Under the pieces are notes generated by a model. That model was not told where the DNA came from and did not search any database. It worked only from the letters and a program-made list of their open reading frames with translations. Made by a program: the position numbers and the translations under genes. Source: Candidatus Bathycorpusculum sp. (GTDB taxonomy: Archaea; Thermoproteota; Bathyarchaeia; Bathyarchaeales; Bathycorpusculaceae). Taken from it: a DNA stretch of 64,000 bases. Shown one piece after another: positions 13,912 through 32,993 of this stretch (the stretch's first letter is position 1; each line of letters begins with the position of its first letter). The DNA lies in NCBI GenBank assembly GCA_009781395.1, contig WQYG01000001.1, positions 3,526 through 67,525 on the forward strand, in the 5' to 3' direction.

Positions 13912-13938
13912 TAATCAACACACCACGATGAAAATAGT

Positions 13939-15532: not shown

Positions 15533-15546
15533 ACACTATGCACGGG

Positions 15547-15562
15547 TGATGCTTTTGTATAC
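15547..15562 (-). repeat. 16-bp dispersed motif GTATACAAAAGCATCA, copy 1
   Basis: Exact match (TGATGCTTTTGTATAC on the + strand). Confidence 0.85.
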
Positions 15563-15752
15563 CACACAACACCCAAATACTCCACAACAAAACTTGCAAC
15601 AACACATTTTTTACATTGCACAACCTATAATGTACAAGCCCTTCAAAGTGTACATAAAAATATGTAACACATCTTCAACAGAACAAAAATTAAATACATT
15701 TGCCAACGAAACTAAAAGGATAAATGCCGAAAACAAAAACAAAGTGGAGTAA

Positions 15753-16726
15753 ATGGCTATGACATTTGATGATTCTGAAATCGTCATCTACCAGACTGAA
15801 GATGGTCACACAAAAATCGATGTTCACATAGAGAAAGAAACTGTTTGGCTAACACAAGCATAAATGGCTAAACTTTTCCAAACAACAAAACAAAACATAA
15901 GCCTCCACATAAACAACGCCCTCAAAGAAGGTGAAATAGACTTACTTCAGTTGTCAAGGAATACTTGACAGCTCAAAGTATTACAATCTTGATGTGATTA
16001 TTTCGGTTGGTTATCGTGTGAAGTCGCTTCGGGGTACGTAGTTTAGGGGTGGGCTTTGGGCGTTTTGTGTGAGTATCTTGTTAAGGGTTTTTCGATGATG
16101 ATGATTTGCTGAAGAAGGCGGGTGGGGGGTAATTATTGGCTGGAACTTCGTTCTAGTGAGAAGGTTTTTTTATCGGTAGGTGCTTGATCTTTATGCTACA
16201 AGTGTGGACTATGATCCGCGAACGTCGGAGTCTTTAGAGTTTTTTAAAATTGTGCAAAATAAGCTTCATTTTGCAGCACATGGCCATACTGCTGGTGAAA
16301 TCATTGCTAAACGTGCTAATGCTGAGTTGCCTTTTATGGGTTTAACGGTTTTTTTGGGTGAGCAACCCGTAAGAGGTGAGGTGGGTATTGCAAAGAATTA
16401 CTTGTCTGAAGTGGAGCTTGCTATGTTGAATCGTATGGTTTCTGCGTTTTTTGATCTTGCTGAATTGCGGGCGATGCAGCATCAACCGATGTATATGCGC
16501 GATTGGGTATAGTAGAATTGGACGATTTTGCTAAGCGCTATGGTAAAGGTGTTTTTTTAAATGCAGGGGTGGTTAGTCATCAAGTGGCTCTTGAAAAGGC
16601 AATGCTTAGTATGAAAAGTATCGTCAAAAAACTTTAGGTGAGCTATCATTTGTTGAGCGTGATTTTCTTGCAAACATAAAAGATGCGCAAAAGAAACTGG
16701 GAGTAAAGGATAAGCGTTCAAAATAG
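15753..16726 (+). pseudogene. Second RhuM-family gene, decayed
   Basis: WLTQA*MA, KYYNLDVIISVGYRVKS, VQNKLHFAAHGHTAGE; stops at 15861, 16039 and 16177, plus frameshifts and deletions. Confidence 0.9.
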
Positions 16727-16864
16727 TTCACAAAAGATGGTTGTGGAGTGTTTATCTGAAATTTAAAATCTGCTCACTCCACGTTTTGTTCTGTTAAATT
16801 TGTTTTTTAGAAAAGTATATATTATGCAAAAAAAAAAAAATAATCTGTGGAGATGATGATAAAT

Positions 16865-18166
16865 ATGAGAAAAATCTTACTCTCTATAGTAGTTGTATTC
16901 TTTATAAGCGGTCTATTTATAGCGGTATTTAGTTCGGGTTTAGTTTTAGCAGAGTCAGTTGGGGATTCTTGGAATTCAAAATCTTCAATGCCGCAGGCTA
17001 GGGGTGGTTTGGGTGTTGTGGTGGTGGGTGATAAGATTTATGCTGTTGGTGGTAAAACTGTTGAGGGGTTTGTTGGGTCTAATGAGCGGTATGATCCTAA
17101 GCTTGATACGTGGGTGACTTTGGAGTCTATGCCTACTGCAAGGGCGTATTTTGCTATAGCTTCCTATCAGAATAAGATTTATTGTGTAGGGGGTCTTAAC
17201 GCTGCTGGGATCTCGTCGGTAACTGAAGTTTATGATACGGCCTCAGGTAGTTGGAGCACTAAGGCTTCTTTGCCTGTTAAGGGAAAAAATTTACAGGGAC
17301 ACGTAGTGGATGGGAAAATTTTTGTTATAGAGGGCTACAATTTGTTTATGTATGAACCAAACACTGATGTGTGGACTAAAAAAACTAGCATACCTGCTAA
17401 CTCTTTGGCTGGTTCCGTCTATGTTGCATCGGCTGTTATAGATAGCGATATAGTGGTTACAAGTAAAACAAAAGTTATGATATATGATGCCAACACTGAC
17501 ACGTGGCGTGAAGGCACTAAGCCTCCATCTGAAATTAGCCAAGGAGTTAGTGGCGCAACAACTGGTGTTTGTGCACCTAAAAGAATCTATACCATAGGAG
17601 CAATCACTACAAAAGAGGAGTGGTGGCAGCACGGATATAACTCTCAGGGTTCTGAGCGGGAGGGGCAGATTTCGCCGGGTTATGTGACTTCTATAGTGCC
17701 TGTTGTGATGGTTTATGATCCTGTAAAGGGCACTTGGTCAAATGTTAATATGGGTATGAATCGTGTAGATTTTGGGGTAGCCGTTATTGATGATATCTTG
17801 TATGTGATTGGAGGTTACATGATATTAATTGGAGAAACTAGTGTAACTGTGGACGTGAATGAATTTGTGGCAGGTGTTACTTATTGGGGGGAATATAGGG
17901 TGGTGTCTAAACAGTTTGTTGCGCCGGAGTCGGTTGTTGGTGAACCTTGTTCTTGGAATTGGCAGTATGTACCAGTTGGCTACAAGGTTACAACAGCGGG
18001 TAATGTTGTATCTCCATCAAACCACTCACCCGGTGAGTCGGCAGGGGTTGAGCTTTCTTTAACTGCACCTATTATAGCAGGTTTAGTGTTAATAGTTGGT
18101 ATTGCTACAACAGGATTATTTTTCTATTTCCGAAAAAACACCTTAAAAAATGGAACATCTGCCTAA
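16865..18166 (+). CDS. Secreted kelch-repeat beta-propeller with C-terminal TM anchor (kelch 1)
   Basis: KIYAVGG...ERYDPKLDTW, KIYCVGG, ILYVIGG repeats; signal peptide; TM helix plus basic tail. Confidence 0.88.
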   Translation: MRKILLSIVVVFFISGLFIAVFSSGLVLAESVGDSWNSKSSMPQARGGLGVVVVGDKIYAVGGKTVEGFVGSNERYDPKLDTWVTLESMPTARAYFAIASYQNKIYCVGGLNAAGISSVTEVYDTASGSWSTKASLPVKGKNLQGHVVDGKIFVIEGYNLFMYEPNTDVWTKKTSIPANSLAGSVYVASAVIDSDIVVTSKTKVMIYDANTDTWREGTKPPSEISQGVSGATTGVCAPKRIYTIGAITTKEEWWQHGYNSQGSEREGQISPGYVTSIVPVVMVYDPVKGTWSNVNMGMNRVDFGVAVIDDILYVIGGYMILIGETSVTVDVNEFVAGVTYWGEYRVVSKQFVAPESVVGEPCSWNWQYVPVGYKVTTAGNVVSPSNHSPGESAGVELSLTAPIIAGLVLIVGIATTGLFFYFRKNTLKNGTSA

Positions 18167-18176
18167 AACACTAATG

Positions 18177-18233
18177 ACCTATCTTTAGATAGGTTTGCTT
18201 CGAAAGGTGTTATCGCCCAAGAAATGGGTGATA
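18177..18233. terminator. Two hairpins between convergent genes
   Basis: ACCTATCT-TT-AGATAGGT and TATCGCCCA-N5-TGGGTGATA. Confidence 0.45.
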
Positions 18234-18248
18234 GGGTGGGAAAGGTGT

Positions 18249-18527
18249 TTATTTTTTTCTTTCTGTAATTATGGCTCTGCATTTATCTGCATATTGGCAG
18301 TATGATAGGCAGGCTGCGTTTTCGTCGGGGCGTTTCCATTCAGCTCCACAACTGGTGCATGTTGTTTGATCTTCATCGCTCCATACTTCAAGCTCGGTAC
18401 CGCAAACATGGCAGTTAGTATAGGAGGGTTTTGGTTGTAAAAAATCTTTCAAACCTGGACAAGTTTCCGGATTTTTTTGAAGTTTATCATCGGAATTACC
18501 ATTTAAGCTCAATGCTTTCACCTCCAA
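18249..18527 (-). CDS. Small Cys-rich zinc-ribbon protein
   Basis: CPG, CHVC, CTSC, CLSYCQYADKC; start codon uncertain. Confidence 0.7.
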   Translation of the reverse strand: MEVKALSLNGNSDDKLQKNPETCPGLKDFLQPKPSYTNCHVCGTELEVWSDEDQTTCTSCGAEWKRPDENAACLSYCQYADKCRAIITERKK

Positions 18528-19146
18528 CCTTTACTTCAATTTCTCGAGTTAACACAGCTTTACCGCAATTTTCTAATGCCTTATTTACTACCCATTTTAA
18601 ACCTGTACAACAGGGCACTTCCATGTGAATTACCGTGATGCTAACTATATTGTTTAGTTTTACGATTTCTGACAATTTTGCAGCATATGCTTGGGCATCA
18701 TTAAATTTAGGACACCCTATGATTATCTGCTTTCCACTTGTTAGGGTGTGAAAATTTTTAAGCACCACAGGTGCACAATCAGCAACAAATAAAATGTTTG
18801 CATTTTCAAAAAACAGTGCTTTAGACGATATAAGATCTATTTTTATAGGCCATTGAACCTTGTTCTGCAAAGTTTCATTGGATCTTGGTTGAGGAACAGC
18901 GGTTTGGTTATTTACTATGTATTTATGTACCTCTTTTTGATCAAACGCCTCAGCTTCACGTTCAATTATAGTGATTGCCCCTTGAGGACAATGCCCTAAA
19001 CAAGCCCCAAGTCCGTCACAATAAATATCTTTAACAATTTTTGCTTTTCCATCAACAATTTGTAACGCCTGCTCTACACAACTTGGAACACATTGCCCAC
19101 AACCGTTACATAAATGTTCATTTATATGTACAATTTTTCTCTTTAT
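18496..19146 (-). CDS. 2x[4Fe-4S] ferredoxin-domain protein with a non-canonical ATA start (or 5'-damaged pseudogene)
   Basis: The frame upstream of the listed ORF reads IKRKIVHINEHLCNGCGQCVPSC...CDGLGACLGHCPQ; ATA is preceded by GGAGG; paralogue of 39777-40493. Confidence 0.8.
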   Translation of the reverse strand: MKRKIVHINEHLCNGCGQCVPSCVEQALQIVDGKAKIVKDIYCDGLGACLGHCPQGAITIIEREAEAFDQKEVHKYIVNNQTAVPQPRSNETLQNKVQWPIKIDLISSKALFFENANILFVADCAPVVLKNFHTLTSGKQIIIGCPKFNDAQAYAAKLSEIVKLNNIVSITVIHMEVPCCTGLKWVVNKALENCGKAVLTREIEVKVGGESIELKW

Positions 19147-19693
19147 GCTAATTCCTCCATTTGCCTTCCCATAGGGGAGGGTTGTTAAAGTGGGGTCTGT
19201 CCGTTTTTAAAATCGTCATCTTTTTTCAATCAGACTGGGACGGCGACATCATCCCCCATATTAATGCGTTGTCTCCATTAAATAAAGCTATCATTTCCAA
19301 AAATTATTTCACCATAAGACTCGTTACTGATTTCTCATTACTTACAAGTTAAACACTTTTGCGATTAATCCCAACCAAACCTCAAAACACATCTTACAAA
19401 CAAGCACCTAAAACTTCTCAAAACTACAACAACAAGCTTTCAAACCTCCCCGAAACTCAATGTAAAAAGCACGCTCCTTCCCCACCTTCTAATAGTTAAC
19501 CGAGCGATTCACCCAAAACCTGCACAATACCTACTTTAAAAAACAACTCAAACCCAGTGCTCCGCAAAAACCATAAGCCTATTCAACTCTTTTTGAATTG
19601 ATGTTGGCGGGATTTTAATCATACCCTATACTGTTGGCGGGCATCCATTAAATAAAAAAGGAGTGCAAGACTACCAAAGAACAATTATGTAGC

Positions 19694-20020
19694 CTATTTT
19701 GTTGTTGTTTTGTATTCTTTAAAGAAGGCCAAAGTTTCTTTTATGGAAGTGATGACTCTTTTTTCTATATCATTTAGAGTTATTATGGGAATGTTTTTGG
19801 GGTCTATTTCAAATTGTGTAAATGCTTCCATATTTGGGGCATCAAAAATTGCATATGAGGTATGTCCTGCACGATCGGTCCATACGCCAACAACTTTTAT
19901 GTCATATTTAGCAGTCAAATTTTCAAGGGTTTCAAGCCACTGTATCATCAAATCCAAGTTTTTAGGATTACCTAAAGGGCAACTTTCAGGCGAATGCCTC
20001 ATTATTTGTAGAATAAACAT
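19694..20020 (-). CDS. Small alpha/beta-barrel-like hypothetical protein (GYD/DUF3303-like)
   Basis: MRHSPESCP...IKVVGVW...HTSYAIFDAPNMEA. Confidence 0.55.
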   Translation of the reverse strand: MFILQIMRHSPESCPLGNPKNLDLMIQWLETLENLTAKYDIKVVGVWTDRAGHTSYAIFDAPNMEAFTQFEIDPKNIPIITLNDIEKRVITSIKETLAFFKEYKTTTK

Positions 20021-20157
20021 ATTAGATCTTTAACAAAAAATGTACTTATTGTAATAAACCTTAGGTTGCAGTAGCTACTAAATTATTCTTTAAATGACAC
20101 TTGTTACTACGTGTGTTACATACTGACGCTTTTTTAAAAAAGGAAAAGAGGGGGTGT

Positions 20158-20322
20158 TTAGATCTTTTTCTTGTCTAAAACTTCTCTAAAGTTTTTACCG
20201 CAACATTCATACAAACCAATGGTTAGTTGGGTACGTTTCCCTTGTTTATCGGGTTTTCCTGCCATTGTCCAGGTTTTTTTTGCGTCTTTAACTTCTTTTC
20301 CACAAATTGGGCATTTTGCCAT
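20158..20322 (-). CDS. Cren7-like small basic chromatin protein with a Cys4 site
   Basis: KKTWTMAGKPDKQGKRTQLTIGLYECCGKNFR parallels Cren7 (KVWALAPKGRKGVKIGLF...GKYFR); CPIC plus CC. Confidence 0.65.
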   Translation of the reverse strand: MAKCPICGKEVKDAKKTWTMAGKPDKQGKRTQLTIGLYECCGKNFREVLDKKKI

Positions 20323-20466
20323 TGATGATTCCTCTAACATATGTTATCGTACGTTTTTATTTAAAAACATTTTTGATTTATAGATCAAAAATTTTAAACT
20401 AAGCTCAAAACAGGGTTATTTTACCTGAATTTTTAAAGTGCCGCATGTTGAGCACTTATTTTTTGC

Positions 20467-21018
20467 TTAAAAAATCTGCTTTGCAGCGGTCAAATAAACC
20501 TCAAACAGTTGCTCAGTATAGAGAACCATTACAACTTTTTCTACACTCTGCTCTTTTTCAAGAAAATTTTTCATAACTCTAAAAGCCACTTGACTAGCTT
20601 CCTCTGCGGGGTATCTATAGGCACCGGTACTAATTGAGGGAAAAGCAACTGTTTTAAGCCCTTTTGCAACGGCAAGTTTAAGCGAGTTCCTATACGCCTG
20701 CTTTAAAAGCTCTGCTTCACCTTGAAGCCCCCCATGCCAAACAGGACCCACCGTATGAATAACCCATTTAGCCCTCAAATTACCCCCCAAAGTTATTACA
20801 GCATAACCCGTGGGTAACCCATCAGGCCAAATAGTTGATCTTATCTTTTTACACTCCTCCAAAATTTCACAACCCCCCTTACTATGGATAGCTCCATCTA
20901 CACCTAAACCACCTAAAAGCGTCGAATTAGCCGCATTAACAACAACATCAACCTCCATATCCGTTATGTCGCCAACAATTAACTGCACAACAGCTGAACC
21001 AACTTTAAACTCAAACAT
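20467..21018 (-). CDS. Macro domain protein (O-acetyl-ADP-ribose deacetylase, YmdB-like)
   Basis: GDIT, VVNAANSTLLGGLGVDGAIH, VIHTVGP, AFPSISTGAYRYP. Confidence 0.92.
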   Translation of the reverse strand: MFEFKVGSAVVQLIVGDITDMEVDVVVNAANSTLLGGLGVDGAIHSKGGCEILEECKKIRSTIWPDGLPTGYAVITLGGNLRAKWVIHTVGPVWHGGLQGEAELLKQAYRNSLKLAVAKGLKTVAFPSISTGAYRYPAEEASQVAFRVMKNFLEKEQSVEKVVMVLYTEQLFEVYLTAAKQIF

Positions 21019-21038
21019 TCGCTCTTTCAACCTACCTT

Positions 21039-21683
21039 TTATCCTATTAACGTAAACACTGACATTAAAGCTGAACCTATAAAATAGGTACCAAACAACA
21101 AAAAGACCCCTACACAAAACAGTGTAATTCCATAACGTACCCGTGGAGTCCAAAATTTCTGAGATTTAAAAACTAATAAACCAACAAGAGAATACCACAA
21201 AAAATCAATAGACCAATGAACACCTGCAAAAATGCCAAACCCAACAACTCCAAATAGTTGAGCGTTCAAAATTAAAGCCGTACCAATGGTTAACCACCAT
21301 AAAATAAAACCCGCGTTAACTGCAGTAGTCCAAACACCTGAAAACAAAGAGTCACGCTTCAAACTTGTAATTGAATGATCCTCTTGACGATTACGATTTT
21401 TAAATGCTCTAACACCCATAAACAACATCAAAGCACCACCTACAATCCCAACAGTCATCTGCACCCAATTAGGAATCGCAAACTGACTAAGCAAAACATA
21501 AATCAGAATCATCAACGGAAACTCTACAATACCATGGCCTAACGCAATTAACGCGCCTGCAATTTTACTTTTAGCTGATTTTTGAAGGGTAATTGCAAAT
21601 AAAGGACCCGGCATTAAAACACCGCTCAAAGAAATCAACATAACCGAACCTAAAAACACGTAAAAACTTGAAACAAACTCCAA
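21039..21683 (-). CDS. LysE-family translocator
   Basis: SGVLMPGP, ALGHGIVE, WWLTIG; about six TM helices. Confidence 0.85.
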   Translation of the reverse strand: MEFVSSFYVFLGSVMLISLSGVLMPGPLFAITLQKSAKSKIAGALIALGHGIVEFPLMILIYVLLSQFAIPNWVQMTVGIVGGALMLFMGVRAFKNRNRQEDHSITSLKRDSLFSGVWTTAVNAGFILWWLTIGTALILNAQLFGVVGFGIFAGVHWSIDFLWYSLVGLLVFKSQKFWTPRVRYGITLFCVGVFLLFGTYFIGSALMSVFTLIG

Positions 21684-21738
21684 ACAACATACCCTCCTAT
21701 TAATTAGTAAAACATGTTTTGTAAGAGTTATAAATGGT

Positions 21739-22308
21739 TTACTTGCGGTTAGACATAGTTTCTAATAATATTTTTTGCATTTTTACAATATCTTCACTAT
21801 CTTTAGCCGTAACATATTGGTCAAGAAAACGTTGGTTTAACTCAAAAAACGTGTGACCCCACGAAAAAATCCCAAGCATCTCCTCTGCTTCAGCTTTAAA
21901 TCCTGCAATATACAAAGAAGCAGCTAACGCTTCAGCAGTAGTAAGTTTGGTTAATTTCCCAAAATTTACCGGGTTGCTTGCAATTAAAATAGGCAAACAT
22001 CTACTGGTACCTCTAACATGCTCCCCTAACACTTTCTGAGCCTGCTCCCAACTACAATCCAAAGCCGCTAAACCAAAATTTTCAAGACGTTCCCTATCTG
22101 CAGGAGAAAAAGCAATTTCACTGAAAGGATTAAGCACTATAGCCCGTTTAGGCAAAAAACGGATTTTTTTAACAATACGCACAAACCCCCGCCGACTCAA
22201 CCGTAACGCTGTATTCTTTTTAGGATCATCCTGCGCTGCATGATAAACACTAACCCTAACAGCCAAATCATGATTTGGCGCATCGTTGTTATTGTTGCCT
22301 GTCTCCAT
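21739..22308 (-). CDS. tsr3: SSU rRNA aminocarboxypropyltransferase Tsr3
   Basis: QDDPKKNTALRL, LDCSW, RCLPILIASNPVNFG, LTTAEALAA, FSWGHTF. Confidence 0.93.
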   Translation of the reverse strand: METGNNNNDAPNHDLAVRVSVYHAAQDDPKKNTALRLSRRGFVRIVKKIRFLPKRAIVLNPFSEIAFSPADRERLENFGLAALDCSWEQAQKVLGEHVRGTSRCLPILIASNPVNFGKLTKLTTAEALAASLYIAGFKAEAEEMLGIFSWGHTFFELNQRFLDQYVTAKDSEDIVKMQKILLETMSNRK

Positions 22309-23853
22309 TTATTGTCGCACCTTTAAATGATCCATAGGATTAACAAATACTTGAGGGATCCACTCCAAAAGATCGGATGCAAGCATGTGAGAACCTATGT
22401 TAGATGCTACAAAATCACCACAAGCCCCATTCACAAACGCACCCGCAACAGCTGCCTCAAAAGCATCTGCTTTTTGCGCTAACAACCCCCCCACAATACC
22501 TGCAAGTACATCCCCCGTACCCCCAACAGTCATACCCACATTACCCGTAAAATTCAACTTTACCCGCCCAGTAGAACTACAAATAATATCCGGATTACCC
22601 TTAACAAGCAAAACAGCCTTTAACTCTTTAGCAGTCTTTTGAATCATAACAATTCTATCTTCAAGACTTTCCGGAAGCTTTTTTCCCGTAAGAATACTAT
22701 ATTCACCACTATGAGGGGTAAGCACTAAAGACGTTTGCAGAGGCCGTTTAAACTGTGCAAACGCCTTCAAACCATCCGCATCCAAAAGCAACGCCTTACC
22801 CGCTTTCTCCACCCGCTCAACAAACAATTTTACAAACTCAAAAGTCTCACCCTGCAAACCCAACCCAGGCCCTAACACAACAGCATCCACAGACGCTAAA
22901 TAAGGCTCCAAATCCACCACATTACCGGGAGTAAGATTATCACCCAAAAGTTTTATTGAAATTAAATCAGGAGACAATGACGAAATAGCCTGAGCTGTTT
23001 TCTCAGGAGCAGCCGTATAGACAACATCATTACCCGTTCGCAAAGCCGCCATAGATGCAAGAGCAGGAGCACCACAAAAAACACTACTACCACCCACAAC
23101 AAGCAAACGCCCAAAATCACCCTTATGCACCCCCAAAACACGCTTCTTACCCACCAAACCAACATCGCCCGGCCCCGAAAACCGCTCAAACTCTAAAGGC
23201 AAACCAATATCACAAACAACTAACTCCCCAACAAACCCCATAGCCTTACCCAACCCCACCTTAGACTTATAAAACGTAACCGTCAAATCAGCCTTAACAG
23301 CCACATCTAAAACCTCACCCGAATCCGAATCTACCCCTGTAGGCACATCAACAGCAACCTTAAACCCATTCAAAGAATTAATAAACTCAACCATCTGCAA
23401 AACAGGCGCCCTCAACACCCCCTTAGAACCCGTACCCAACAAAGCATCCACAACAACATCCGCCTCAACCAACAAAGACATAGAAAAACTATCCGAAACC
23501 TCAACAACCTGAACACCCCTACAACAACCCTTAACATATTTTAGAGCATTCCAATTCTGCAATGCAGATGAATGATGAATATCTTTACTTTTTCCAACTA
23601 AAACAACCATAACCTGATAACCGCACGCTAAAAGATGACGCGCCGCAACAAACCCATCCCCACCATTCCCACCCAAACCACAAAAGAAAACAACCCTCTT
23701 CGCACTTGGAAAACGCCTCTGAATCTCCACAGCAACACACCTACCCGCATTCTCCATAAGCTGCAACAAACTCACACCAAAATACTCCCCATTAACCTCT
23801 ACAGCACGCATTCCACGACTGGAAATCGAAAGAGACCTATTTCCTGCTTGCAT
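22309..23853 (-). CDS. nnr: Bifunctional NAD(P)H-hydrate epimerase/dehydratase
   Basis: LMENAG, GNGGDG, VDVPTG, HKGDFG, DADG, LTPHSGE, GGTGDVLAG. Confidence 0.93.
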   Translation of the reverse strand: MQAGNRSLSISSRGMRAVEVNGEYFGVSLLQLMENAGRCVAVEIQRRFPSAKRVVFFCGLGGNGGDGFVAARHLLACGYQVMVVLVGKSKDIHHSSALQNWNALKYVKGCCRGVQVVEVSDSFSMSLLVEADVVVDALLGTGSKGVLRAPVLQMVEFINSLNGFKVAVDVPTGVDSDSGEVLDVAVKADLTVTFYKSKVGLGKAMGFVGELVVCDIGLPLEFERFSGPGDVGLVGKKRVLGVHKGDFGRLLVVGGSSVFCGAPALASMAALRTGNDVVYTAAPEKTAQAISSLSPDLISIKLLGDNLTPGNVVDLEPYLASVDAVVLGPGLGLQGETFEFVKLFVERVEKAGKALLLDADGLKAFAQFKRPLQTSLVLTPHSGEYSILTGKKLPESLEDRIVMIQKTAKELKAVLLVKGNPDIICSSTGRVKLNFTGNVGMTVGGTGDVLAGIVGGLLAQKADAFEAAVAGAFVNGACGDFVASNIGSHMLASDLLEWIPQVFVNPMDHLKVRQ

Positions 23854-23913
23854 ACTTTATACCTATAATATTAAACGGTTTTTACCAAATAAGGTTATCC
23901 ATCCAACAACACA

Positions 23914-23941
23914 CCGTATACAAAAGCATCAACAAAACACA
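23914..23941 (+). repeat. 16-bp motif copy 2, within a 28-bp perfect inverted repeat shared with 27509-27536
   Basis: CCGTATACAAAAGCATCAACAAAACACA. Confidence 0.9.
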
Positions 23942-24678
23942 CAAAAACCCAACAACTTACAAAATTCCCCAACCTATACCGAGACATTCTTTAACAAAAT
24001 TTCCATGACCCACTAGGACAAACACCTTTTTACAAATAACCTAAAAACCTGCCACCCAACTCGACAAAAAAATCACAGTACAACCACATTTAAAAAAAAC
24101 AATTTCGAAGTACAACGAACCTTATATAATCATACCTCACAAAAAAACTAACAAAACAACTAAAAACAAAAAATATGAGGTTAACAAAATCACCAAACCA
24201 AAAAACTTCAAAAACAACCCCAAACACACATCTAAACACCAAAAACAACAACAAAAAAACCTTTTTAGACTTAAAACATCCTACGCACAAACAATTTTAC
24301 AGACGTAGGATCTGTAAAAACAGTAACTTGTAATGTTTTAGAAGTAAAATAGGTCGTTAACAGTACAAGTTATTCTATTACAGTTCCTTATGCGTGTTTA
24401 CATAATTTTTGTTTGTACGAAAAACCTTCGAATGGAAAACTTTTACAACAAACAGTTAAATCAACAAAACACTTAACCCATATTTAGCCTTTTATATCTA
24501 AATTTACTTGATTTTAGCTGTCTCGGTATATTCTTGTGTCCGAAAAAACGAAACCATGTTTGTAGAGCAACTGTGATATTGTAGACCAGACTGGTTTTCT
24601 ACAACAATAGTAAACACGTACTGGAACACAAATCTGGCACTTATCGACTGCTTTAAATAAGGTAAAGGGTAATGTTTT

Positions 24679-26130
24679 ATGGGTATAGTTATGTTTAGAA
24701 GTAAACAGATTTCTTTGAGGGGTATAAAATTTTTAGTAACTATAGCTTGTATGTTGTTGTTTGTTGTTGGTTGTTTTACTACTATGCCTTTAATGGCAAA
24801 CTCTACAGAGTTAGCTGAAGATTCTTGGAATACAAAAACGCCGATGTCCAATTATCCATGGGGGAACCCTGAAATTGTTGTTTTGGACGGTAAAATTTAC
24901 ACTATAGGAGGTGGTGATCTTCAGGGTAACACAACAAATTCTGGTTATGTGGAATGCTATGAACCAAAGATCGATACCTGGACCACTTTAACGTCCATGC
25001 CTACACCAAGAGCTGATGTTAGCATCGTTGTGTATCAAGGCAAGATTTACTGCATAGGCGGATATGTCTCTAATTCAGGCTCAATACCCATGATTCGCTA
25101 CACAGATATAGTTGAGGTTTACGATCCCAAAACTGATAGTTGGAGTAAAAAAACATCCGTGCCAATTGAAACCAGGACACCCATACAAGCTTGTGTGGTG
25201 CGTGAGCAACTTTTCGTCATAGGCCTAAATGGCGAATTATGTTTATATGACCCAGCTGCTGATAGCTGGAGCCATAAAGCTTCCTTAGTAGTTGAAATAC
25301 CCTCCAAACAATTGGCACCGTATAAACACGGTTATGCCGTAAATGGACAACTTTTCGTCCTAGTCCAAAAAGGACATCGTTTAGAGATGTATATGTATAA
25401 TTCTGACGCAGATCTATGGACAAAAAAAGACAATCCACCCATAGAAAATGATGCATATGTAACTACTGTGAAGGGCAGGACTGTTGTGGTGGACAACAAG
25501 CTAATAATTCCAGAATGGAATGGGGTTTACCAGAATATTGCCCCATCAAACCAGGATACCACTGGCATAAACAGTGACAAGTATAGTGGTTTAACTATGA
25601 GAACCAAGGTTATTGGTGTTACGTGGAAGCTTTGGATTTATAATTCAAAAACGGATAGTTGGAGTGAAGGAAAAACAAGTCCTATGTTTACAAACTCGGG
25701 CGACCAAATTTTTGGAGTAACATCGGGTGTTTATGCACCTGTAAAAGTTTATGTTTTTGGATACACCCAACTTGATCTGGATACTGTCCAAGCAGTTACT
25801 TGGGTTTATGATCCTGCAAAAAATGTTTGGTCAACCGCAAACGCTCTGCAGATGGACCGGCAGGTGTCTACACAAAGTTTTGACAAGTTGGTTATTGCTG
25901 ATGACATTTATTATCTGATGGGGAAGGGCGGTCTTAACGAACAATATACTCCAATAGGGTACTCACCTGAGACGGGCCATCTGCTATACAAGTCATCAAG
26001 CACTGGTAGAGATCAATCATTAAACATCACTGCCATAGTTACAATAGTTCTGACAATTAGCGTTGTTACTGTATGCTTATTTGGTTATTTCAGAAAAAAA
26101 CGGAAAACGGGTAAAGGAAAAATGTTTTGA
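24679..26130 (+). CDS. Secreted kelch-repeat protein with C-terminal TM anchor (kelch 2)
   Basis: KIYTIGG...YEPKIDTW, KIYCIGG...YDPKTDSW; TM helix plus RKKRK tail. Confidence 0.88.
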   Translation: MGIVMFRSKQISLRGIKFLVTIACMLLFVVGCFTTMPLMANSTELAEDSWNTKTPMSNYPWGNPEIVVLDGKIYTIGGGDLQGNTTNSGYVECYEPKIDTWTTLTSMPTPRADVSIVVYQGKIYCIGGYVSNSGSIPMIRYTDIVEVYDPKTDSWSKKTSVPIETRTPIQACVVREQLFVIGLNGELCLYDPAADSWSHKASLVVEIPSKQLAPYKHGYAVNGQLFVLVQKGHRLEMYMYNSDADLWTKKDNPPIENDAYVTTVKGRTVVVDNKLIIPEWNGVYQNIAPSNQDTTGINSDKYSGLTMRTKVIGVTWKLWIYNSKTDSWSEGKTSPMFTNSGDQIFGVTSGVYAPVKVYVFGYTQLDLDTVQAVTWVYDPAKNVWSTANALQMDRQVSTQSFDKLVIADDIYYLMGKGGLNEQYTPIGYSPETGHLLYKSSSTGRDQSLNITAIVTIVLTISVVTVCLFGYFRKKRKTGKGKMF

Positions 26131-26149
26131 TATCGTGAGTGTTTAGTTG

Positions 26150-27232
26150 TTAGATTAAGAAGTCTTGGAGTCGTAGTTGGCCGCTCTTTTTTGGTGGTAT
26201 GACTATTTTTTTTAGGTTCTCTATCAAGATGTTTAATCTTTGATCTGTAATTAAATTGGCAAATGCGGTGATCATTTCTTTGTATTTTTCTTCATTTCCT
26301 AGTTTTAACATTTTTATGTACTGGGTTCTTTCGGTTCCTAAGAATAATAGTCGGGGATATCCGCTTCTGTTTAGCATGTAATTAAATATCTCTCGACCGA
26401 CTCTTCCGTTTCCGTCTGTGAAGGGGTGTATCATTTCAAAATGGTAATGAAATAGTGCTGCTTCTTCAAAGGGGTGGTTTTCTTTTTCGATGGCTAAGTA
26501 GTAATTGTGTAGGATTTCTTTTAGTTCTGTTTCGATAAGTTCTGCGGGTGTTATGGGTAGATCACAGCCAGCTATTGCTAAGGCATCTATACGTCTGAAA
26601 TGTCCTGCTGAATTGTAGTCTATGTTGTTCATTATTAGACTGTGGAGATCTTTTATGAAGTCTAAGGTTACTTTTCCTGTGTGTTTGTCTCTACATTTTT
26701 TTACTTTTTTAAAATTTTGAACTTCGTTTATTTCTCGTAAAGTTTTGTCGTTTGGGGGTATTTCGTTTACCAGTAAATCGTGTGCTTGGCTAAGTGTTAG
26801 AGTGTTGCCTTCTATAGCTGTTGTTCCTTGCACGTATTGTATTTCAAAATTTTGTTCATACACTTGACTTTCGTCGGCTGTTAACAGTTTGGCATATTTT
26901 TTGTAGGCGAATCTTGTGGTTTCAAGTAGTCGTAGTTTTTCTTTGTCTAAATAGTTTGTTTTTAGAAAACTTGTGCTTAACTCAACTTCTTTTTCTATTG
27001 CTTGAGTCTCTATCTCATAGGCGTATTGTTCTGATAATTTTTGAAGTTCTTCGGTGGTTGGTTTTTGTTGTCCTATGAATTTTCGCACGTTTATTTTTTT
27101 GTCATTAACTTTTACATCTTTAACTAGGTAATAGGCGTGTTTGTTGGTGGGTGAAACGCGGTGTTCAAGACGATAGGGAATGTTTGTTTTTGAGGTGGGC
27201 ACAGTGTTCTCCAACTTCCAATATGGGACCAC
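26150..27232 (-). CDS. Fic-family protein (putative AMPylase) with an N-terminal extension
   Basis: Canonical HPFTDGNGRVGR motif and inhibitory-type TAIEGN motif. Confidence 0.92.
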   Translation of the reverse strand: MVPYWKLENTVPTSKTNIPYRLEHRVSPTNKHAYYLVKDVKVNDKKINVRKFIGQQKPTTEELQKLSEQYAYEIETQAIEKEVELSTSFLKTNYLDKEKLRLLETTRFAYKKYAKLLTADESQVYEQNFEIQYVQGTTAIEGNTLTLSQAHDLLVNEIPPNDKTLREINEVQNFKKVKKCRDKHTGKVTLDFIKDLHSLIMNNIDYNSAGHFRRIDALAIAGCDLPITPAELIETELKEILHNYYLAIEKENHPFEEAALFHYHFEMIHPFTDGNGRVGREIFNYMLNRSGYPRLLFLGTERTQYIKMLKLGNEEKYKEMITAFANLITDQRLNILIENLKKIVIPPKKSGQLRLQDFLI

Positions 27233-27505
27233 CTTTATTAATTTTTTTAATTTAAGGGGTCACCAAATATACTTGCACATACTGGACAATTTTAGTAATC
27301 AACTATAAAACAATTACACCCAAACACCTAATCAAACACGCTTCTATAGGCCTCTTAAAAATAGTGAATTTGTCTCTGTTTAGAACAGCCCCTAAAAACA
27401 CAAGTAACCTTTTTGTCAACGGATAAAAATTCAAGTGTAAACCTTCACCAAATCCTTATTGTTATTAACTGTCGGCTCAAGTAGCAGGAGTGTTTTTTCG
27501 TTTAG

Positions 27506-27536
27506 AACTGTGTTTTGTTGATGCTTTTGTATACGG
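27506..27536 (-). repeat. 16-bp motif copy 3 (extended)
   Basis: AACTGTGTTTTGTTGATGCTTTTGTATACGG; 29 bp identical to 32965-32993. Confidence 0.9.
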
Positions 27537-28489
27537 GTTTTGGTTGATAGCTATCACCAGTAAAAATCAAAAATTCTGTAAGGGTATTTTTGAAAGCATA
27601 ACAAGTAGCCTTGAGGGCAGTTTATTGTTTTGTGGCAGGTATGTTTAAACTTGTTTTTTAGGCAAGTTTGTCTAATTTTGCAAAATTTTTCAAACTTGGG
27701 GAAAATATGTCTAACTTGACGTTTTGTTGTTGATTTGCAAAAAAACAGTCAAACGCTGCAGAATATTTGTAACTTAAGGTTCAACGTTTGTACGTGTGAC
27801 TTGTTTGTTTAAAAAGACTGTTTTTTACGGGTTTTTTGTCAATATGTTTGTTGTTTGTTGTTGTTTTATGTCGAATTGCTGTTTGGGGAATTTTTGCTCG
27901 ATTTTTTCACCTAAACACAAAATAAAAAACCTCTATAAACACCTAAAATGTGAAAATAGGTGCGGTTTGGTCTTGTTTGACCTGTCCCTAGGGGTCATGT
28001 ATGGACAATATCGGAGCCTCTTAAAAGTACCGTCGAAAATCTACGTACGAAGGAAAAAGGGGCTTCTTCGAAAACTGTTCGAGGTTTTGGGTCACAAATA
28101 TCTATGCTTGGGCTAAAAAATCAGAAGTGAGAATCTTTGACAAAAAACATACAAACTTTGGTAGAAACAAATCAGCGAATCTTTGTCTATATGGCGTGGT
28201 TATTGTTTTGGTTTGTGGTGTGGGGGGTTGTTTGTTTTTTTGTGGGGGTTATCGGAGATTTGTTGTTGTTGGCTGTGTTTTGTTTTGGGTTGTTTTGTTG
28301 TATGTTGTTGTTTGTATTTTTTTGTTGTTGGAGAGTAGAGTGTTGTTCTGTGTTTAACAGGCCCAAATATGCTGTTATTTTGTTTGTTTTTACATATGAG
28401 AAATACTGTTGTGTTGTATTGGTTGTATTGGTATTTAATGCCACCAATATTCATCACCAGTACACACCAGTTTTTGGCGGGTTTAGTGC

Positions 28490-28505
28490 GTATACAAAAG
28501 CATCA
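28490..28505 (+). repeat. 16-bp motif copy 4
   Basis: Exact GTATACAAAAGCATCA. Confidence 0.85.
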
Positions 28506-28583
28506 CCCAAACACAATTGCCGCAGTCGTGTTAACAAACATTTTATCCTGCCTAACCCTAAAGATTGTAAAGGTAATAGTTTA

Positions 28584-29063
28584 ATGAGTAAAGACTTTGA
28601 TAGAGTAAAGCTTCGTCGATGGCGTAAACGTGGATTCTACAGTGAAGCCGCACTGGTAAAGTTACTCAAAAAGAAAGGCTACAACGCCGTAAGAGTCCCC
28701 GTAAGCAACCCCAGCCTAAACCCCCTACCCGATGTCATTGCACGCAAAGGCCAACACACATACGCCTTTGAAGTAAAAAACGCCACCTACTACGCCTACT
28801 TTCCCAAAGTCCAAATCGACAAACTATTCCAATTCCTAGACCAATTCATACCCACCGACAACAAATACAAACACGCCGTCGCAGCAGCCCACTTGGGAAA
28901 AAAATGGCTCTTTAAAGAAATCACCTGGACCGACTGGGAAAAAAACAAAATCCCCGAAAAAGTCCGAATCCTAAAACGCGACCGAGGCAACCTAAACCCC
29001 GACAAAACATACCAACAAGAAAACACACCACCACAACCACCCAACACTGACAGGGACACTTAA
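28584..29063 (+). CDS. Hjc-like PD-(D/E)xK nuclease (Holliday junction resolvase-like)
   Basis: RGFYSEAALVKLLKKKGYNAVR...PDVIA...AFEVK; the longer ORF from 28137 is a low-complexity extension. Confidence 0.8.
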   Translation: MSKDFDRVKLRRWRKRGFYSEAALVKLLKKKGYNAVRVPVSNPSLNPLPDVIARKGQHTYAFEVKNATYYAYFPKVQIDKLFQFLDQFIPTDNKYKHAVAAAHLGKKWLFKEITWTDWEKNKIPEKVRILKRDRGNLNPDKTYQQENTPPQPPNTDRDT

Positions 29064-30281
29064 CCATGCAGCAACATCAAGTAAAATCGCAAACAGAGGT
29101 GCCAAAATCCCTGCAGATGCGTTAGAAGGCGCATTAGTTACCACCTTACCTTGCAGATAACTAATGTCATAGTTGTTATACCCTTGTTTAAATGGGGCTG
29201 TCCACTGCTTGCCCTTTATCTGCTCATTGTACACCTTGTCATGTACGGGCAACCTATCACATGCTGCAGAAGCGCTATTGTTTGAAAAAACTACTGACTT
29301 ACTAACTACAAGCTTTCTAAATTCTGCTATGACATTAGTGTTAGTAACCCAAACTCCACCACCATCACCCGCTGCTACATTACCCAAAATCATACCCCCC
29401 AACAAATCAACCTGACCACTGCTAATGTACACCCCACCACCATTAGTAGCCCTGTTATTTGAAATAACACAAGAATCACCTACCATACTAAACGTATCAA
29501 AACTATTACACACCCCACCACCCCATTCACGGGCATTATTGCTATCAAGCATGCCACCATACATAACAAAAATTTTGTCGTTATCTACCCCACCACCCGA
29601 AGTAGCTGTATTATTGGCAATCTTGCCACCAAACATCTCAAAAACACCAACATTAAACACCCCACCACCAAGACATTCCGCAATGTTACCCGAAATTTCG
29701 CCTCCAAACATGCTAAACGTACCATGATTTTGTACTCCCCCACCACTAGCAAAAGCTTGATTATTGTCGGAAATTTTGCCACTGTTCAAGATAAGTCTAC
29801 CACCAGCATCAACAAACACCCCTTTACCTATCACACCTGACGCATGAGTCACAATAATACCATCAAGCGTTAACACTCCACCCCCCTCAACAGCAAGAGT
29901 TGCATAACCCAAAGTAAGATGACCACTTGCACCAAACAATTTAAAAAAACTAGACCCATCACTTGTTAACGTAATGTTTGCACCGGTAGAAACGTTAAGT
30001 GTGGACTCTGTAAGATAAATATCTGCAGTAAACACAACAACTACAGGCTTACCAACCACCCCCACAGCTTGCCTAAGTTCAACCTCATTTTTAACATATA
30101 CACCAATAACCTCTTCTAAAGAAGAACCATCATCACGGCCTACCGCTAACATACAAGACGATAAAGAAGAAAACAATAGCCCAAACAAAAGAAAAACAAC
30201 CAATAACCCTCTACAAAAACTGCTAAACTTAAACTGGGCCTTAACACTCACAACCATACAACATCTACCACAAATAAGCAT
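28992..30281 (-). CDS. Secreted beta-helix adhesin-like protein with GGGVxN repeats; C-terminus may be truncated
   Basis: Signal/TM N-terminus; GGGVQN, GGGVFN, GGGVDN, GGGVCN, GGGVY, GGGVW; the 3' end overlaps the Hjc-like gene. Confidence 0.75.
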   Translation of the reverse strand: MLICGRCCMVVSVKAQFKFSSFCRGLLVVFLLFGLLFSSLSSCMLAVGRDDGSSLEEVIGVYVKNEVELRQAVGVVGKPVVVVFTADIYLTESTLNVSTGANITLTSDGSSFFKLFGASGHLTLGYATLAVEGGGVLTLDGIIVTHASGVIGKGVFVDAGGRLILNSGKISDNNQAFASGGGVQNHGTFSMFGGEISGNIAECLGGGVFNVGVFEMFGGKIANNTATSGGGVDNDKIFVMYGGMLDSNNAREWGGGVCNSFDTFSMVGDSCVISNNRATNGGGVYISSGQVDLLGGMILGNVAAGDGGGVWVTNTNVIAEFRKLVVSKSVVFSNNSASAACDRLPVHDKVYNEQIKGKQWTAPFKQGYNNYDISYLQGKVVTNAPSNASAGILAPLFAILLDVAAWLSVPVSVGWLWWCVFLLVCFVGV

Positions 30282-30386
30282 TAACCATTATTTATAAGCC
30301 ATTTCACTCTTTTTTTACTCAACCTAACACACCAACTTCTAAATCCCAAAAATAATGTCAAAATAAACACATAAAAATGAACCTCA

Positions 30387-31544
30387 TTATTTCTTTCTTC
30401 TTTTAACTGCTAAGGCTATGACGGCTGACACAGTCATAATTGCTGTTAGTCCAATTGTTATGAGGGCAATTCGGTTAAGCTCAAAAGTTGTCTGAGTAGT
30501 TTTATGGGGAATTGATAGAAACTGTTCAGGGGTTTTAGCCGTATGGTCATAGTCACTTGGTACATATTGCTCATTTATAGCAACTTTAGTAACTGGTGTT
30601 GTTCGGGAGTAATGGTTTAAAAGTTCATCAGAAGTGTACCCTCCAATTACATACAAAACATCATCAACCACAGCCACGCCAAAACCGTCTCGAGCGGTAG
30701 GCAGAGGTTTGATAGTTGACCAAGTATTACTTATAGGATCATAAACTGAGTTATAAAATGTCAAAGTATCAAAGTCATATCCCGTGCCTATGATATAAAT
30801 TCTTTGAGGCACATAAACCCCCGAGGTTACAACAGCAAGGGTGCCTCCATGAGGATCTACTTGTCCTTTGTTCCATTGATCATTTTTTGGGTCATAAATC
30901 ATAACCTTCTGCGCAGTATCTGTATCTGCACCAAAATTGTAGGCGTCAACAACCACTAATTTATTGTCCATCACAACTGTGAGATAGCTTGGTGACCTGT
31001 AAAAGTTAGGCATACTAGATTTTTGAATCCATGAATCAGCAGCTATATCATACATAAACAAATCACCGCCATAGGTAAAGAAAATTTGGCCATCTATAGC
31101 ACAGGGGCGTATTGTTGTTCCTCCCCTACGGGGCATAGACGTTTTAGTACTCCAACGGTTAGTAACTGTATCATAAACCTCAACCGCTAACAACCCGTAT
31201 TCAGTGCTATATGAGCCTCCTATACAATAAATTTTGTTTTGATATGCGACAATCCCAAAGTTTGTTCGTGGTGTAGGCATAGCTGTCAGAGTAGTCCATG
31301 TGTCCGTTTTAGGATCATAACACTCATTAGTACCTACTACTGTACCATCAATTGTGCTACCGCCAATGGCATAAATTTTGCCATCCACTGCAACAACCCC
31401 TAACCCACTTCGTGCCTCGCTCATGGGGGCTTTTGTATTCCAAGAATCCTCAACCAATTCTGACGATAAAACAGGATTAACCCCTATTATAAAAAATCCA
31501 CATATGATGAAGATAAGCAGTATGAGGGACAAGATTTTTCTCAT
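30387..31544 (-). CDS. Secreted kelch-repeat protein with C-terminal TM anchor (kelch 3)
   Basis: KIYAIGG...YDPKTDTW, KIYCIGG, VLYVIGG; TM helix plus KRRKK tail. Confidence 0.88.
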   Translation of the reverse strand: MRKILSLILLIFIICGFFIIGVNPVLSSELVEDSWNTKAPMSEARSGLGVVAVDGKIYAIGGSTIDGTVVGTNECYDPKTDTWTTLTAMPTPRTNFGIVAYQNKIYCIGGSYSTEYGLLAVEVYDTVTNRWSTKTSMPRRGGTTIRPCAIDGQIFFTYGGDLFMYDIAADSWIQKSSMPNFYRSPSYLTVVMDNKLVVVDAYNFGADTDTAQKVMIYDPKNDQWNKGQVDPHGGTLAVVTSGVYVPQRIYIIGTGYDFDTLTFYNSVYDPISNTWSTIKPLPTARDGFGVAVVDDVLYVIGGYTSDELLNHYSRTTPVTKVAINEQYVPSDYDHTAKTPEQFLSIPHKTTQTTFELNRIALITIGLTAIMTVSAVIALAVKRRKK

Positions 31545-31643
31545 AATCATCAACTATAGATAATTGTTTTTTTTTTTGCATAATATATACTTTTCTTAAA
31601 AATAAGTTTTACAGAGCAAAATGTGTGGTGGGCAGGTTTTGTT

Positions 31644-32351
31644 TTATTGTTTTTGGTTTAGGTGTTCAAATGTTTTGGGGTATGTTTTTAGTTGGTGTAT
31701 GTGGGCGGGGAGTTGGTTTAGGAAGTTTTGTAGTTGTAGTATGGGGACTATGGGGATGTTGTTGTAGAATTTGGTGTTGTTTTGTGTTAGGGAGAGGATT
31801 GTGGGGATGAATTGTGCGTTTTTCCATTTGGTGCATTCGAGTTGTAGTTTGGGGTTTGGGAGTGTTTCTGTTAGGGCTTTTGTGCGGTTTGCTTGGGTGG
31901 TTGCGATTTTTTTTAGTGTTAAGGGTGAGATGGTGTGTCCCCAGTGTTTGCAGTCTATGCATATGACTATGGGGTGTTTGCAGCCTATGGCGTCGATTTC
32001 CCATTTGCGGTTTGGTGTTTTGAAGTGTACGTTTTTGTAGACTATAAAGTCGTTGTTGTGTAGGGCTATGGCTGTGATTTCTTCGAATTCTTGCCAGCAT
32101 AGTGTGTTGCTGACGTGTTCGATGTCGGCGCCTAAGGTGACGGCTTTTATGGCTAGTTTTAGTCGGTCATTGGTTGAAACGTTTATTGTTTCGTTGGTTA
32201 GGTTGAGTAGGTCTTCGGTTTGTAGTTTTTCCAGTAGGGTGTGTATTGTTTCGGTGGGTAGGTTGGTGTTGTTTTTAATGTGTTTGGTTAATGTTGTGTT
32301 TTTTTGGGTTAGTTTTAGAAGTGAGAGTATAAAGTTGCGTTCGATGCTCAA
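31644..32351 (-). CDS. Winged-helix plus restriction-endonuclease-like (Mrr/NERD-type) protein
   Basis: WQEFEE...EIDAIG...CIDCKHW PD-(D/E)xK pattern. Confidence 0.7.
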   Translation of the reverse strand: MSIERNFILSLLKLTQKNTTLTKHIKNNTNLPTETIHTLLEKLQTEDLLNLTNETINVSTNDRLKLAIKAVTLGADIEHVSNTLCWQEFEEITAIALHNNDFIVYKNVHFKTPNRKWEIDAIGCKHPIVICIDCKHWGHTISPLTLKKIATTQANRTKALTETLPNPKLQLECTKWKNAQFIPTILSLTQNNTKFYNNIPIVPILQLQNFLNQLPAHIHQLKTYPKTFEHLNQKQ

Positions 32352-32388
32352 GGTGAAGCCTCTTTAAGTGTATGTTAGAGGGTGTTTG

Positions 32389-32993
32389 GTATACAAAAGC
32401 ATCAACCGAACATATTTTTTGTGCTTATGGTTTTTTCTTTTTTTGTAAAGGGTCATACTGATTTCCTAAGCGTTGTATGGTTGTTGTATGTGGTGTTGTT
32501 GAAAATAATTCTTTCGTTAGGGGGTGTTTTTTGTTAGGGGGTTTTGTTGGCTTCGTTAGTTGTGGTTGTTTTTTTGGTTGGTGATGGGCGAATTATTGTT
32601 GTTTGTGTTAGTTATTTGTTGTTTTGTTGTTTGTTTTTAACTGTTTAGTGTAAAAAATGTTTGTTCGAATTTTTTTCGTTATTGTGAAACGGCAAAGTTG
32701 TCTAAAACGTTATATAATCGCGGTTAATTGTGTGCTGTAAGGGAAAAAGTTGTGGTGAGTCGGGTTGTTTGAGGGTTTTGAGGGGGTTGTGATTGAGTTT
32801 TGGCGAGGTTTTAAGTGTTTTAGGGTTTGTTTTTCTTTTTTGACGCTATTTTTGTTTATGTTTTGGGTGACAAAAATTGTTTTTGTTTTTTGTAGGGTAT
32901 GATTATATAAGGTTCGTTTGTTTTCGTTTTATTTTTGGCATTTGAGGTTTTAGATTTTAGTGTTAACTGTGTTTTGTTGATGCTTTTGTATAC
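32389..32993. mobile_element. 605-bp non-coding element bounded by 18-bp perfect inverted repeats (motif copies 5 and 6); MITE-like
   Basis: GTATACAAAAGCATCAAC at 32389 and GTTGATGCTTTTGTATAC ending at 32993; interior is G/T-rich with no credible ORF. Confidence 0.6.

Follow-up and report, generated by a model that had tools for sequence, protein, structure and literature searches.

A stretch of 64,000 nucleotides from a Candidatus Bathycorpusculum genome (the window, C1:3526-67525 of the assembly) carries six exact copies of the 16-mer GTATACAAAAGCATCA, which is the invariant 5' core of an asymmetric element of ~28 bp. In relatives the element occupies orthologous, syntenic intergenic places in more than 80 species from several families; in closed genomes its cluster lies nearly opposite the best Orc1/Cdc6 gene (orc1-1), and its outlying copies point towards that gene along their own replichores. 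The 16-mer is the core of a conserved functional DNA site, putatively bound by a sequence-specific DNA-binding protein. We propose, with somewhat less than even confidence, that the element and this protein form a polar protein-DNA barrier, a functional analog of Tus-Ter and RTP-Ter, with some copies doubling as promoter operators. The fuller proposal, of which we are less sure again, is that the sites and their binding protein would be the first replication-fork trap described in Archaea, a convergently evolved one that fixes termination opposite a single origin and shields co-directional operons from backward forks, with the only Holliday junction resolvase gene wired to one of the sites.

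The six copies fall within 17 kb, at the coordinates and on the strands given in the first-pass annotation of the window, and all lie outside credible genes, as that annotation had also held. They are listed here as 28-bp elements, together with two copies of a 23-mer that resembles an archaeal promoter with a B recognition element (BRE) and TATA box.

15535 to 15562, minus strand (16-mer at 15547-15562): copy c1, of the operon-end class.
23916 to 23943, plus strand (16-mer from 23916): copy c2, outermost on the left of the cluster, with 63 bp between its 5' end and the nnr start.
27507 to 27534, minus strand (16-mer from 27519): copy c3, inner-left, at a position orthologous to the YjbQ-promoter copy of relatives.
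28490 to 28517, plus strand (16-mer from 28490): copy c4, inner-right, 94 bp upstream of the hjc start codon.
32389 to 32416, plus strand (16-mer from 32389): copy c5, the inner copy of a ~600-bp convergent pair, its 5' end facing the start of a gene for a winged helix-turn-helix (wHTH) NERD protein.
32966 to 32993, minus strand (16-mer from 32978): copy c6, the outer-right copy of the cluster, with the promoter-like 23-mer 60 bp further in.
32896 to 32918, minus strand: the 23-mer AACGAACCTTATATAATCATACC, a BRE/TATA-type promoter-like block that lies within the convergent pair and points towards c5 and the NERD gene.
24114 to 24136, plus strand: the second copy of the 23-mer, 198 bp inside c2.

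The chance expectation for a 16-mer in the window is 0.08, and six copies were reached in none of 100 shuffles. No further match to the 16-mer with up to two mismatches was found in the window, and a count over the whole assembly (2.13 Mb in 163 contigs) gave only eight copies at up to one mismatch; the two additional copies are at C17:9957 and C74:181, both on the plus strand. Copy c1 abuts the stop codon (15530-15532) of a ZnuA/ABC/ABC-3 operon, beginning 15 bp past the ABC-3 permease stop codon and pointing into the 3' end of the operon, and the open reading frames (ORFs) that overlap it are all spurious. Copies c3 and c6 do share 29 bp, and the 23-mer occurs twice as first reported; the TATA-like box noted in it belongs to a conserved BRE/TATA-like block whose consensus within the convergent pair, tCGAAAa..AgCGAAcCTTAtATAatCATg, is conserved in 14 species.

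Fifty-three instances from many genomes define the full element as G[T/G]ATACAAAAGCATCA-aC-aaAaCaCAgTt. Its first 16-18 bases are nearly invariant, with core positions conserved in 92-100% of instances except the second base (T in 85%, G in other families), and the flanks diverge. In an oriented alignment of six flanks no conservation was seen 5' of the 16-mer, and a more weakly conserved tail of ~12 bp follows it on the 3' side. Two direct half-repeats, ACAAAAGCA and ACAAAACAC, lie 13 bp apart in the element, ATACAAAAGCATC being its strong half and the direct repeat ACAAAACAC its weaker one; the only symmetric part is the hexamer GTATAC, which is GGATAC in other families.

The exact word is present in 67 of 301 sampled genomes of the class, all of them in the order of the window, and in none of ~210 genomes of other orders, with the reversed word giving 0-1 matches as a control. 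In the genus Candidatus Bathycorpusculum each of the 25 genomes searched has 2-13 copies, most of them grouped in 5-20 kb with alternating orientations; many genomes have only two or three. Other families of the order carry GGATACAAAAGCATCA, often as a single divergent pair. The relatives (Bathyarchaeia, "Bathy-6") are metagenome-assembled genomes (MAGs) from termite and millipede gut, fen, and soil. The motif sequence was not found in the literature searched, and the papers in it that mention the genus describe no cis-element.

In six closed circular genomes the cluster lies at 0.491, 0.484, 0.493, 0.495, 0.500, and 0.477 of the circle from orc1-1, which is 0.02-2.3% of the circle (0.6-67 kb) from the antipode of that gene. 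The cluster is also ~0.49 of the circle from orc1-1 in two further genera represented by large contigs, and a second gene, orc1-2, is ~0.2 of the circle from the cluster in the closed genomes. In the genome of the window the Cdc6_C matches are on other contigs, with none on the window contig. An origin axis was derived by sampling gene orientation in forty 20-kb segments per genome, with an unbiased scan of 40 axis positions. The origin so placed falls at 2178 kb in G003 (orc1-1 at 2166 kb) and at 108 kb in G040 (orc1-1 at 114 kb), the adjacent sample in both, and at 2052 kb in G328, one step (96 kb) off orc1-1 at 2148 kb; the difference in gene orientation between replichores has p=0.003 in G328, 0.024 in G003, and 0.2 in G040. 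The cumulative gene-orientation curve of G003 peaks at 942-962 kb, with the cluster at 963-971 kb, and the switch from plus- to minus-strand genes, at which genes converge, is beside the cluster in G003 and ~100 kb away in G328, with G040 noisy. Genes for RFC subunits, a GINS-like protein, MCM, and PolD DP2 and ribosomal protein operons lie within ~50 kb of orc1-1 (L213 in G003, ~2.22 Mb; L205 in G328, ~2.09 Mb), which is consistent with an origin there, and we infer that orc1-1 marks the single origin. The location opposite the presumed origin that would be expected of Ter-type sites was found in all six closed genomes, and the gene-orientation axis agrees with it in G003 and G328 and weakly in G040.

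The orientation of the copies follows the same axis. All 17 copies found outside the clusters of five closed genomes point towards orc1-1 along their own replichore, as do six more outlying copies on large contigs, with one other too close to orc1 to call. Most of the 17 keep the 3' extension and are therefore genuine. The outlying copies represent ~10 distinct loci, many within 10-80 kb of orc1-1, and the neighboring gene runs with the motif at half of these loci and against it at the other half, which argues that the polarity follows replication rather than transcription. Within the cluster the pattern of the genus is + - - + + -, and its four inner copies obey the polarity rule.

Sites that are asymmetric and few, with a uniform polarity along the arms and a switch at a divergent pair in the terminus, have the arrangement of polar terminators, and we infer protein binding, fork arrest, and the face that blocks. 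Fork traps are known from two unrelated bacterial systems only: Tus binding is asymmetric and polar, RTP recognizes a B half-site strongly and an A half-site weakly and arrests a fork that reaches the strong one first, and both the tus and the rtp promoter contain ter sites (PMC10331603). In our model, a fork that meets the weak 3' half of the element first would pass, and one that meets the invariant 5' core first would be held. Normal forks would then pass all arm copies, and at the divergent inner pair (c3 and c4 in the window) both converging forks could enter the interval and not leave it. Arm copies behind co-directional operons (ZnuABC in the window, ribosomal protein operons in relatives) would stop backward forks before they enter such operons head-on, and the copies in the promoters of hjc, nnr, and the NERD gene would probably have a second function as operators, like the promoter-borne ter sites of tus and rtp.

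Several observations weigh against this proposal. The archaea studied so far terminate replication by free fork collision, and no Ter sites are seen in Sulfolobus, the only system studied (PMC3020120). Orthologous sites are not independent and origin-symmetric inversions keep their orientation, so that the effective number behind the 17 of 17 is nearer 10. The outermost cluster copies, c2 and c6, are reversed and would hold incoming forks, unlike the prediction for an E. coli-type trap. Gene orientation is the only axis signal and is weak in G040; ordinary GC skew gave no usable signal as an origin or terminus marker in G003 or G040, and third-position GC skew is confounded by gene strand. The genome G297, of the same order and on a single contig that is possibly not closed, has no exact motif, and its NERD gene is only 184 kb from orc1-1, which departs from the antipodal rule. 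Finally, 72 of 80 species have one copy at -91 to -115 from the start of hjc, always in the same orientation, and this fixed distance, together with a fixed spacing to a TATA-like word, fits a transcriptional operator.

28584 to 29063, plus strand: hjc, the only Holliday junction resolvase homolog in the genome (Pfam Hjc, 4e-14).

The catalytic E..D..E-x-K residues of Hjc are present. A BRE/TATA-like sequence, aacaaacattttat, lies ~20 bp beyond the c4 element, and footprinting of the hjc upstream region gave the element, ~20 variable bases, and then aaCAatTTTTAT at +46 to +58. Of 61 hjc copies, 93% have a TATA-like word at +44 to +60; among 168 other copies the share is 14%, the background level. 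In the main rival to a barrier, the element would be an ordinary transcription factor operator or upstream activating site (UAS) serving a small regulon that includes hjc-ABC/FtsX, yjbQ, isochorismatase, nnr, the NERD gene, lon, gdh, and mtnP-apt. Conserved synteny, together with rearrangements symmetric about the origin, would then have produced its terminus location and polarity as side effects. In favor of such an operator, every copy is intergenic, in most cases no more than ~100 bp from a start codon, and the same orthologous genes (yjbQ, ABC/FtsX, hjc, and NERD) lie downstream in different families. However, the TATA spacing holds for hjc only, and a UAS at fixed distance was rejected as a general rule. 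Some copies have their 5' end towards a gene start (50-63 bp away at nnr and ~90 bp at the NERD gene). Several others immediately follow the final stop codon of an operon and are oriented into that operon, as c1 is behind the ZnuABC permease gene, as others are in relatives behind S19 at the end of the L3-L4-L23-L2-S19 operon, and as copies are behind the S3Ae-...-DUF47 operon both on C17 of the window's own genome and in G328; one copy in G003 sits between two convergent 3' ends. Orientation is fixed relative to the origin and not relative to genes, a regulon operator would be unusual in having a non-palindromic core of 16-18 bp with the same sequence within species and from one species to another, and the genes adjoining copies across families (hjc, NERD, yjbQ, ABC/FtsX, lonB, gdh, mtnP-apt, mazG-like, thiDN, argG, and leuC) share no functional theme. 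We consider a pure operator rather unlikely, though more probable than any other rival.

Two loci in the window encode candidates for the protein that would bind the element.

31644 to 32351, minus strand: a gene for a winged-helix protein with a NERD (restriction endonuclease-like) domain, candidate binder, linked to the motif in families f1, f2, f7, and f11.
33790 to 34951, minus strand: two overlapping genes, for a small winged-helix protein (34571-34951) and a ParA/MinD-type ATPase (33790-34602), second candidate binder.

The NERD protein keeps the PD-(D/E)xK motif, and its structural model has a winged helix and a restriction endonuclease-like domain (predicted local distance difference test score 83). 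Foldseek matched the model to IclR/MarR wHTH domains and to the nuclease domains of Can2, VC1899, and R2, with low TM-scores. Its gene occurs once per genome in 239 of the 301 genomes sampled from the class, some of them from orders that lack the motif, and as a motif-specific partner by phylogenetic profile it was rejected; it is a candidate binder through its linkage only. An ArsR-like gene of 89 amino acids adjoins an origin-proximal copy in relatives and is a further candidate, as is Hjc itself. Tus and RTP were not among the Pfam matches of the 30 proteins scanned (25 from the window and five from relatives' loci), although no search aimed at either was made.

The winged-helix and ParA/MinD pair flanks the cluster in three genera, which bears on a second alternative, that the element marks chromosome organization without barrier activity, be it a matS/MatP-like terminus or segregation mark, a site of condensin loading or unloading, or a centromere-like site; in the last variant the element would be read by the neighboring winged-helix and ParA/MinD pair. 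The clustering of copies at the terminus with extras near the origin would also suit such a role. The element is asymmetric and strictly polar, however, unlike the palindromic parS and matS sites, the wHTH-ParA pair is unlinked to it in most species and in other families, and many genomes have the low copy numbers noted above, and we regard an organization site as improbable. The suggestion in the first-pass annotation that the motif is a protein-binding site holds in kind, but not for an origin or a partition site: the asymmetry speaks against a partition site, and an origin site fails since orc1/cdc6 is off the window contig and about half a chromosome away in closed genomes and no AT-rich unwinding element lies between the copies of the divergent pair.

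Pfam scans and cross-species clustering of ORFs gave a conserved map of the locus. Reading from left to right, it consists of macro, lysE, tsr3, and nnr running leftward, a rightward copy of the element, a rightward isochorismatase gene, a leftward yjbQ, one or two leftward copies, a rightward copy, then hjc, ABC, and FtsX genes running rightward, the leftward NERD gene, a rightward copy, an interval of ~600 bp that contains the strong BRE/TATA-like block, and a leftward copy. In the window some genes of this map are replaced.

22309 to 23853, minus strand: nnr, a bifunctional gene for NAD(P)H-hydrate repair and the first gene of the conserved flank nnr-tsr3-lysE-macro.
24679 to 26130, plus strand, and 26150 to 27232, minus strand: a Kelch-repeat gene and a Fic gene, in place of the isochorismatase and YjbQ genes of relatives.
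28992 to 31553, minus strand: a PMP-repeat-like gene and a Kelch-repeat gene, in place of the ABC/FtsX pair after hjc.

A TATA-like box of nnr lies 8-20 bp from the 5' end of c2. On the 3' side of c2, where relatives have isochorismatase, the window has a CA-rich stretch and then the Kelch gene, and neither yjbQ nor isochorismatase was found anywhere in the window's genome. In other genera of the family (L122, L123, and L124) genes for a LonB-type protease and a GNAT acetyltransferase lie between motif copies, at a site that is ~1 kb of non-coding DNA in Bathycorpusculum.

Rearrangement of this locus is part of the evidence for a third alternative, that the copies are site-specific recombination sites, of inversion/shufflon type or dif-like, for a tyrosine recombinase or Hjc. 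The whole segment of ~9 kb bounded by the outermost inverted copies has the opposite orientation in G014, G005, and G015, and the breakpoints coincide with the copies (L014, L025, and L030, against L013, L015, L016, and the window); the symmetric pattern + - - + + - is unchanged by this inversion. Small integrase-like genes adjoin copies in family f7, and the terminus location resembles that of dif. Nevertheless, the three inverted genomes form one clade (98/98) and represent a single ancient inversion, one change on a tree of 15 species, on which ground an active inversion switch was rejected, and no inner segment was found inverted. No palindromic full site exists in 41 genomes: among them no match to the dif-type site GATGCTTTTGTATACAAAAGCATC was better than three mismatches, and in the four matches at three mismatches one arm is an ordinary half site and the other is similar by chance. 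For a dif site, several copies in direct and inverted orientation would be a hazard, and integrases are numerous with none consistently linked to the element. The recombination reading appears very improbable.

What other families retain, several of them as the only unit, is a divergent pair whose copies are ~240-270 bp apart. The two copies of the pair formed by c3 and c4 are 971 bp apart in the window, and the spacing is ~268 bp or ~960 bp in relatives. Beside hjc the interval (L050:2147-2398 and 20 orthologous loci) keeps its length of ~268 bp across families, with the short words GTGTAGKCTAA, GAATG, GGTATTAC, and TCACCAG..CTCCAGA..CACCA preserved in it, and its interior has no conserved ORF, RNA fold, Rfam match, or AT-rich stretch. 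RNAalifold on 21 of these interiors gave zero consensus pairs, and a structured or known RNA was rejected, as Rfam matched nothing in the window except three tRNAs and nothing in four cluster loci at E<=1. Long, asymmetric, conserved sites in an inverted pair around an interval of ~250 bp also recall the origin recognition boxes of a second replication origin, a reading that we rate lower still: no orc1/cdc6 gene is nearby, the AT content of the interior is 0.588 against 0.583 for the locus (maximum over 40 bp 0.73 against a background of 0.72), genes converge near the cluster in G003 and G328 (G040 being noisy), and the outlying copies would make no sense as origin recognition boxes.

The other identity offered at first pass, the terminal repeat of a miniature inverted-repeat transposable element (MITE) or of an IS630/Tc1-like insertion, can be dismissed as having a negligible chance of being right. 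In its favor, c2/c3 and c5/c6 are inverted copies that enclose 3.6 kb and 0.6 kb, and the palindrome GTATAC could conceal a TA duplication. Against it, the sequence in common is only ~28 bp long, and the interiors, although conserved between species, do not resemble each other. In relatives the supposed cargo is made up of ordinary chromosomal genes that are conserved, the copies occupy orthologous positions throughout an order, and there is no transposase in the clusters, no empty site, no target or flanking duplication, and no expansion in copy number. Even taken together, the recombination, origin-box, and MITE readings seem to us quite improbable, and a slightly smaller share of the probability goes to none of the readings named here.

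Other features of the locus were noted alongside the element. Three Kelch-repeat genes, the Fic gene, the PMP-repeat-like gene, and a RhuM fragment displaced conserved genes in the cluster (16180-18166, 24679-27232, and 28992-31553). Local strand asymmetry is extreme in the window (13000-33000) and in the whole assembly, with blocks of 1-4 kb in which (G+T)-(A+C) reaches +-0.58 per 250 bp; the keto skew at third codon positions ranges from -0.9 to +0.8 per gene (standard deviation 0.34 over 848 ORFs), with a polarity independent of gene direction. In the window it is +0.70 for nnr and -0.89 for NERD, and the orthologs of both have almost no skew in other species. The pattern looks like a mutational bias of the deamination type that is specific to the lineage and to the strand. 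The Kelch genes lack the strand skew of their neighbors, which suggests that they were recently acquired. Long CA-rich stretches without ORFs lie downstream of both 23-mers, at 24136-24320 on the plus strand and 32400-32896 on the minus strand; ~150 nt of CA-rich sequence past the first 23-mer (24114-24136) ends in a hairpin, cctacg...cgtagg, at ~24280-24310. These stretches may be unstructured non-coding transcripts or leaders.

If the element is a polar barrier as proposed, it would add a third, independently evolved polar system, in an abundant class of uncultured archaea, and would make fork traps a recurrent solution. It would also provide a sequence marker of the terminus for Bathyarchaeia MAGs, useful for estimates of growth rate from read depth, and a defined 28-bp site with a short list of candidate proteins for studying the polar block of an MCM-type replisome. 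Even as an operator, the element is among the best-conserved cis-elements so far observed in any uncultured lineage of archaea, and the regulon that it would define is centered on hjc.

A comparison of the element with known systems shows likenesses and disparities in each case. Like the dif/XerA system, the element measures 28 bp and is located at the terminus, with hjc and, in some families, a small tyrosine recombinase adjacent; unlike dif, it has no inverted arms or full palindromic site and is present in many copies per genome (2-13). Archaeal UAS such as those of Ptr2 in Methanocaldococcus, GvpE in Halobacterium, and TFB-RF1 in Pyrococcus are degenerate, promoter-bound, and without replication polarity. 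The hjc copy resembles them as a bipartite site shortly upstream of BRE/TATA, and sites common to divergent promoters are a further likeness, but many copies here are not in promoters. The fork barriers of eukaryotic ribosomal DNA (Fob1, Reb1/Sap1, and TTF-I) are polar protein-DNA complexes behind heavily transcribed units, where they block head-on forks. Copies of the element likewise lie directly behind ribosomal protein, S3Ae, and ZnuABC operons and point inward, although the proteins and sequences differ and the same site here also marks the terminus and lies in promoters.

The logic of the proposed barrier is that of the two bacterial fork traps, above all of RTP-Ter. TerI and TerII of B. 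subtilis are two opposed sites close together at the terminus beside a small gene, rtp, which encodes the terminator protein, with a strong and a weak half in each site and arrest of the fork that meets the strong half first, and RTP is a winged-helix protein, as are candidates found here. The half-sites of the element are, however, direct repeats 13 bp apart, and the spacing of the pair is ~250-270 bp (971 bp in the window); the RTP-Ter pair is spaced 59 bp. A ter site in the rtp promoter gives autoregulation (PMC10331603).

The Tus-Ter system of E. coli has no sequence similarity to the element. Most copies here lie within ~10 kb rather than being spread over hundreds of kb, the two outermost copies of the cluster have the "wrong" polarity, and the arm copies are mostly near the origin; the host is an archaeon with an MCM/GINS replisome, and its barrier is a predicted one. 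In other respects the two agree. One site lies in a promoter in both (terB in the tus promoter; PMC10331603), and both consist of few, long, asymmetric, and strongly conserved sites (6-13 here versus 10) with a polarity that, apart from these outermost copies, is uniform on each replichore and switches at the terminus opposite the origin.

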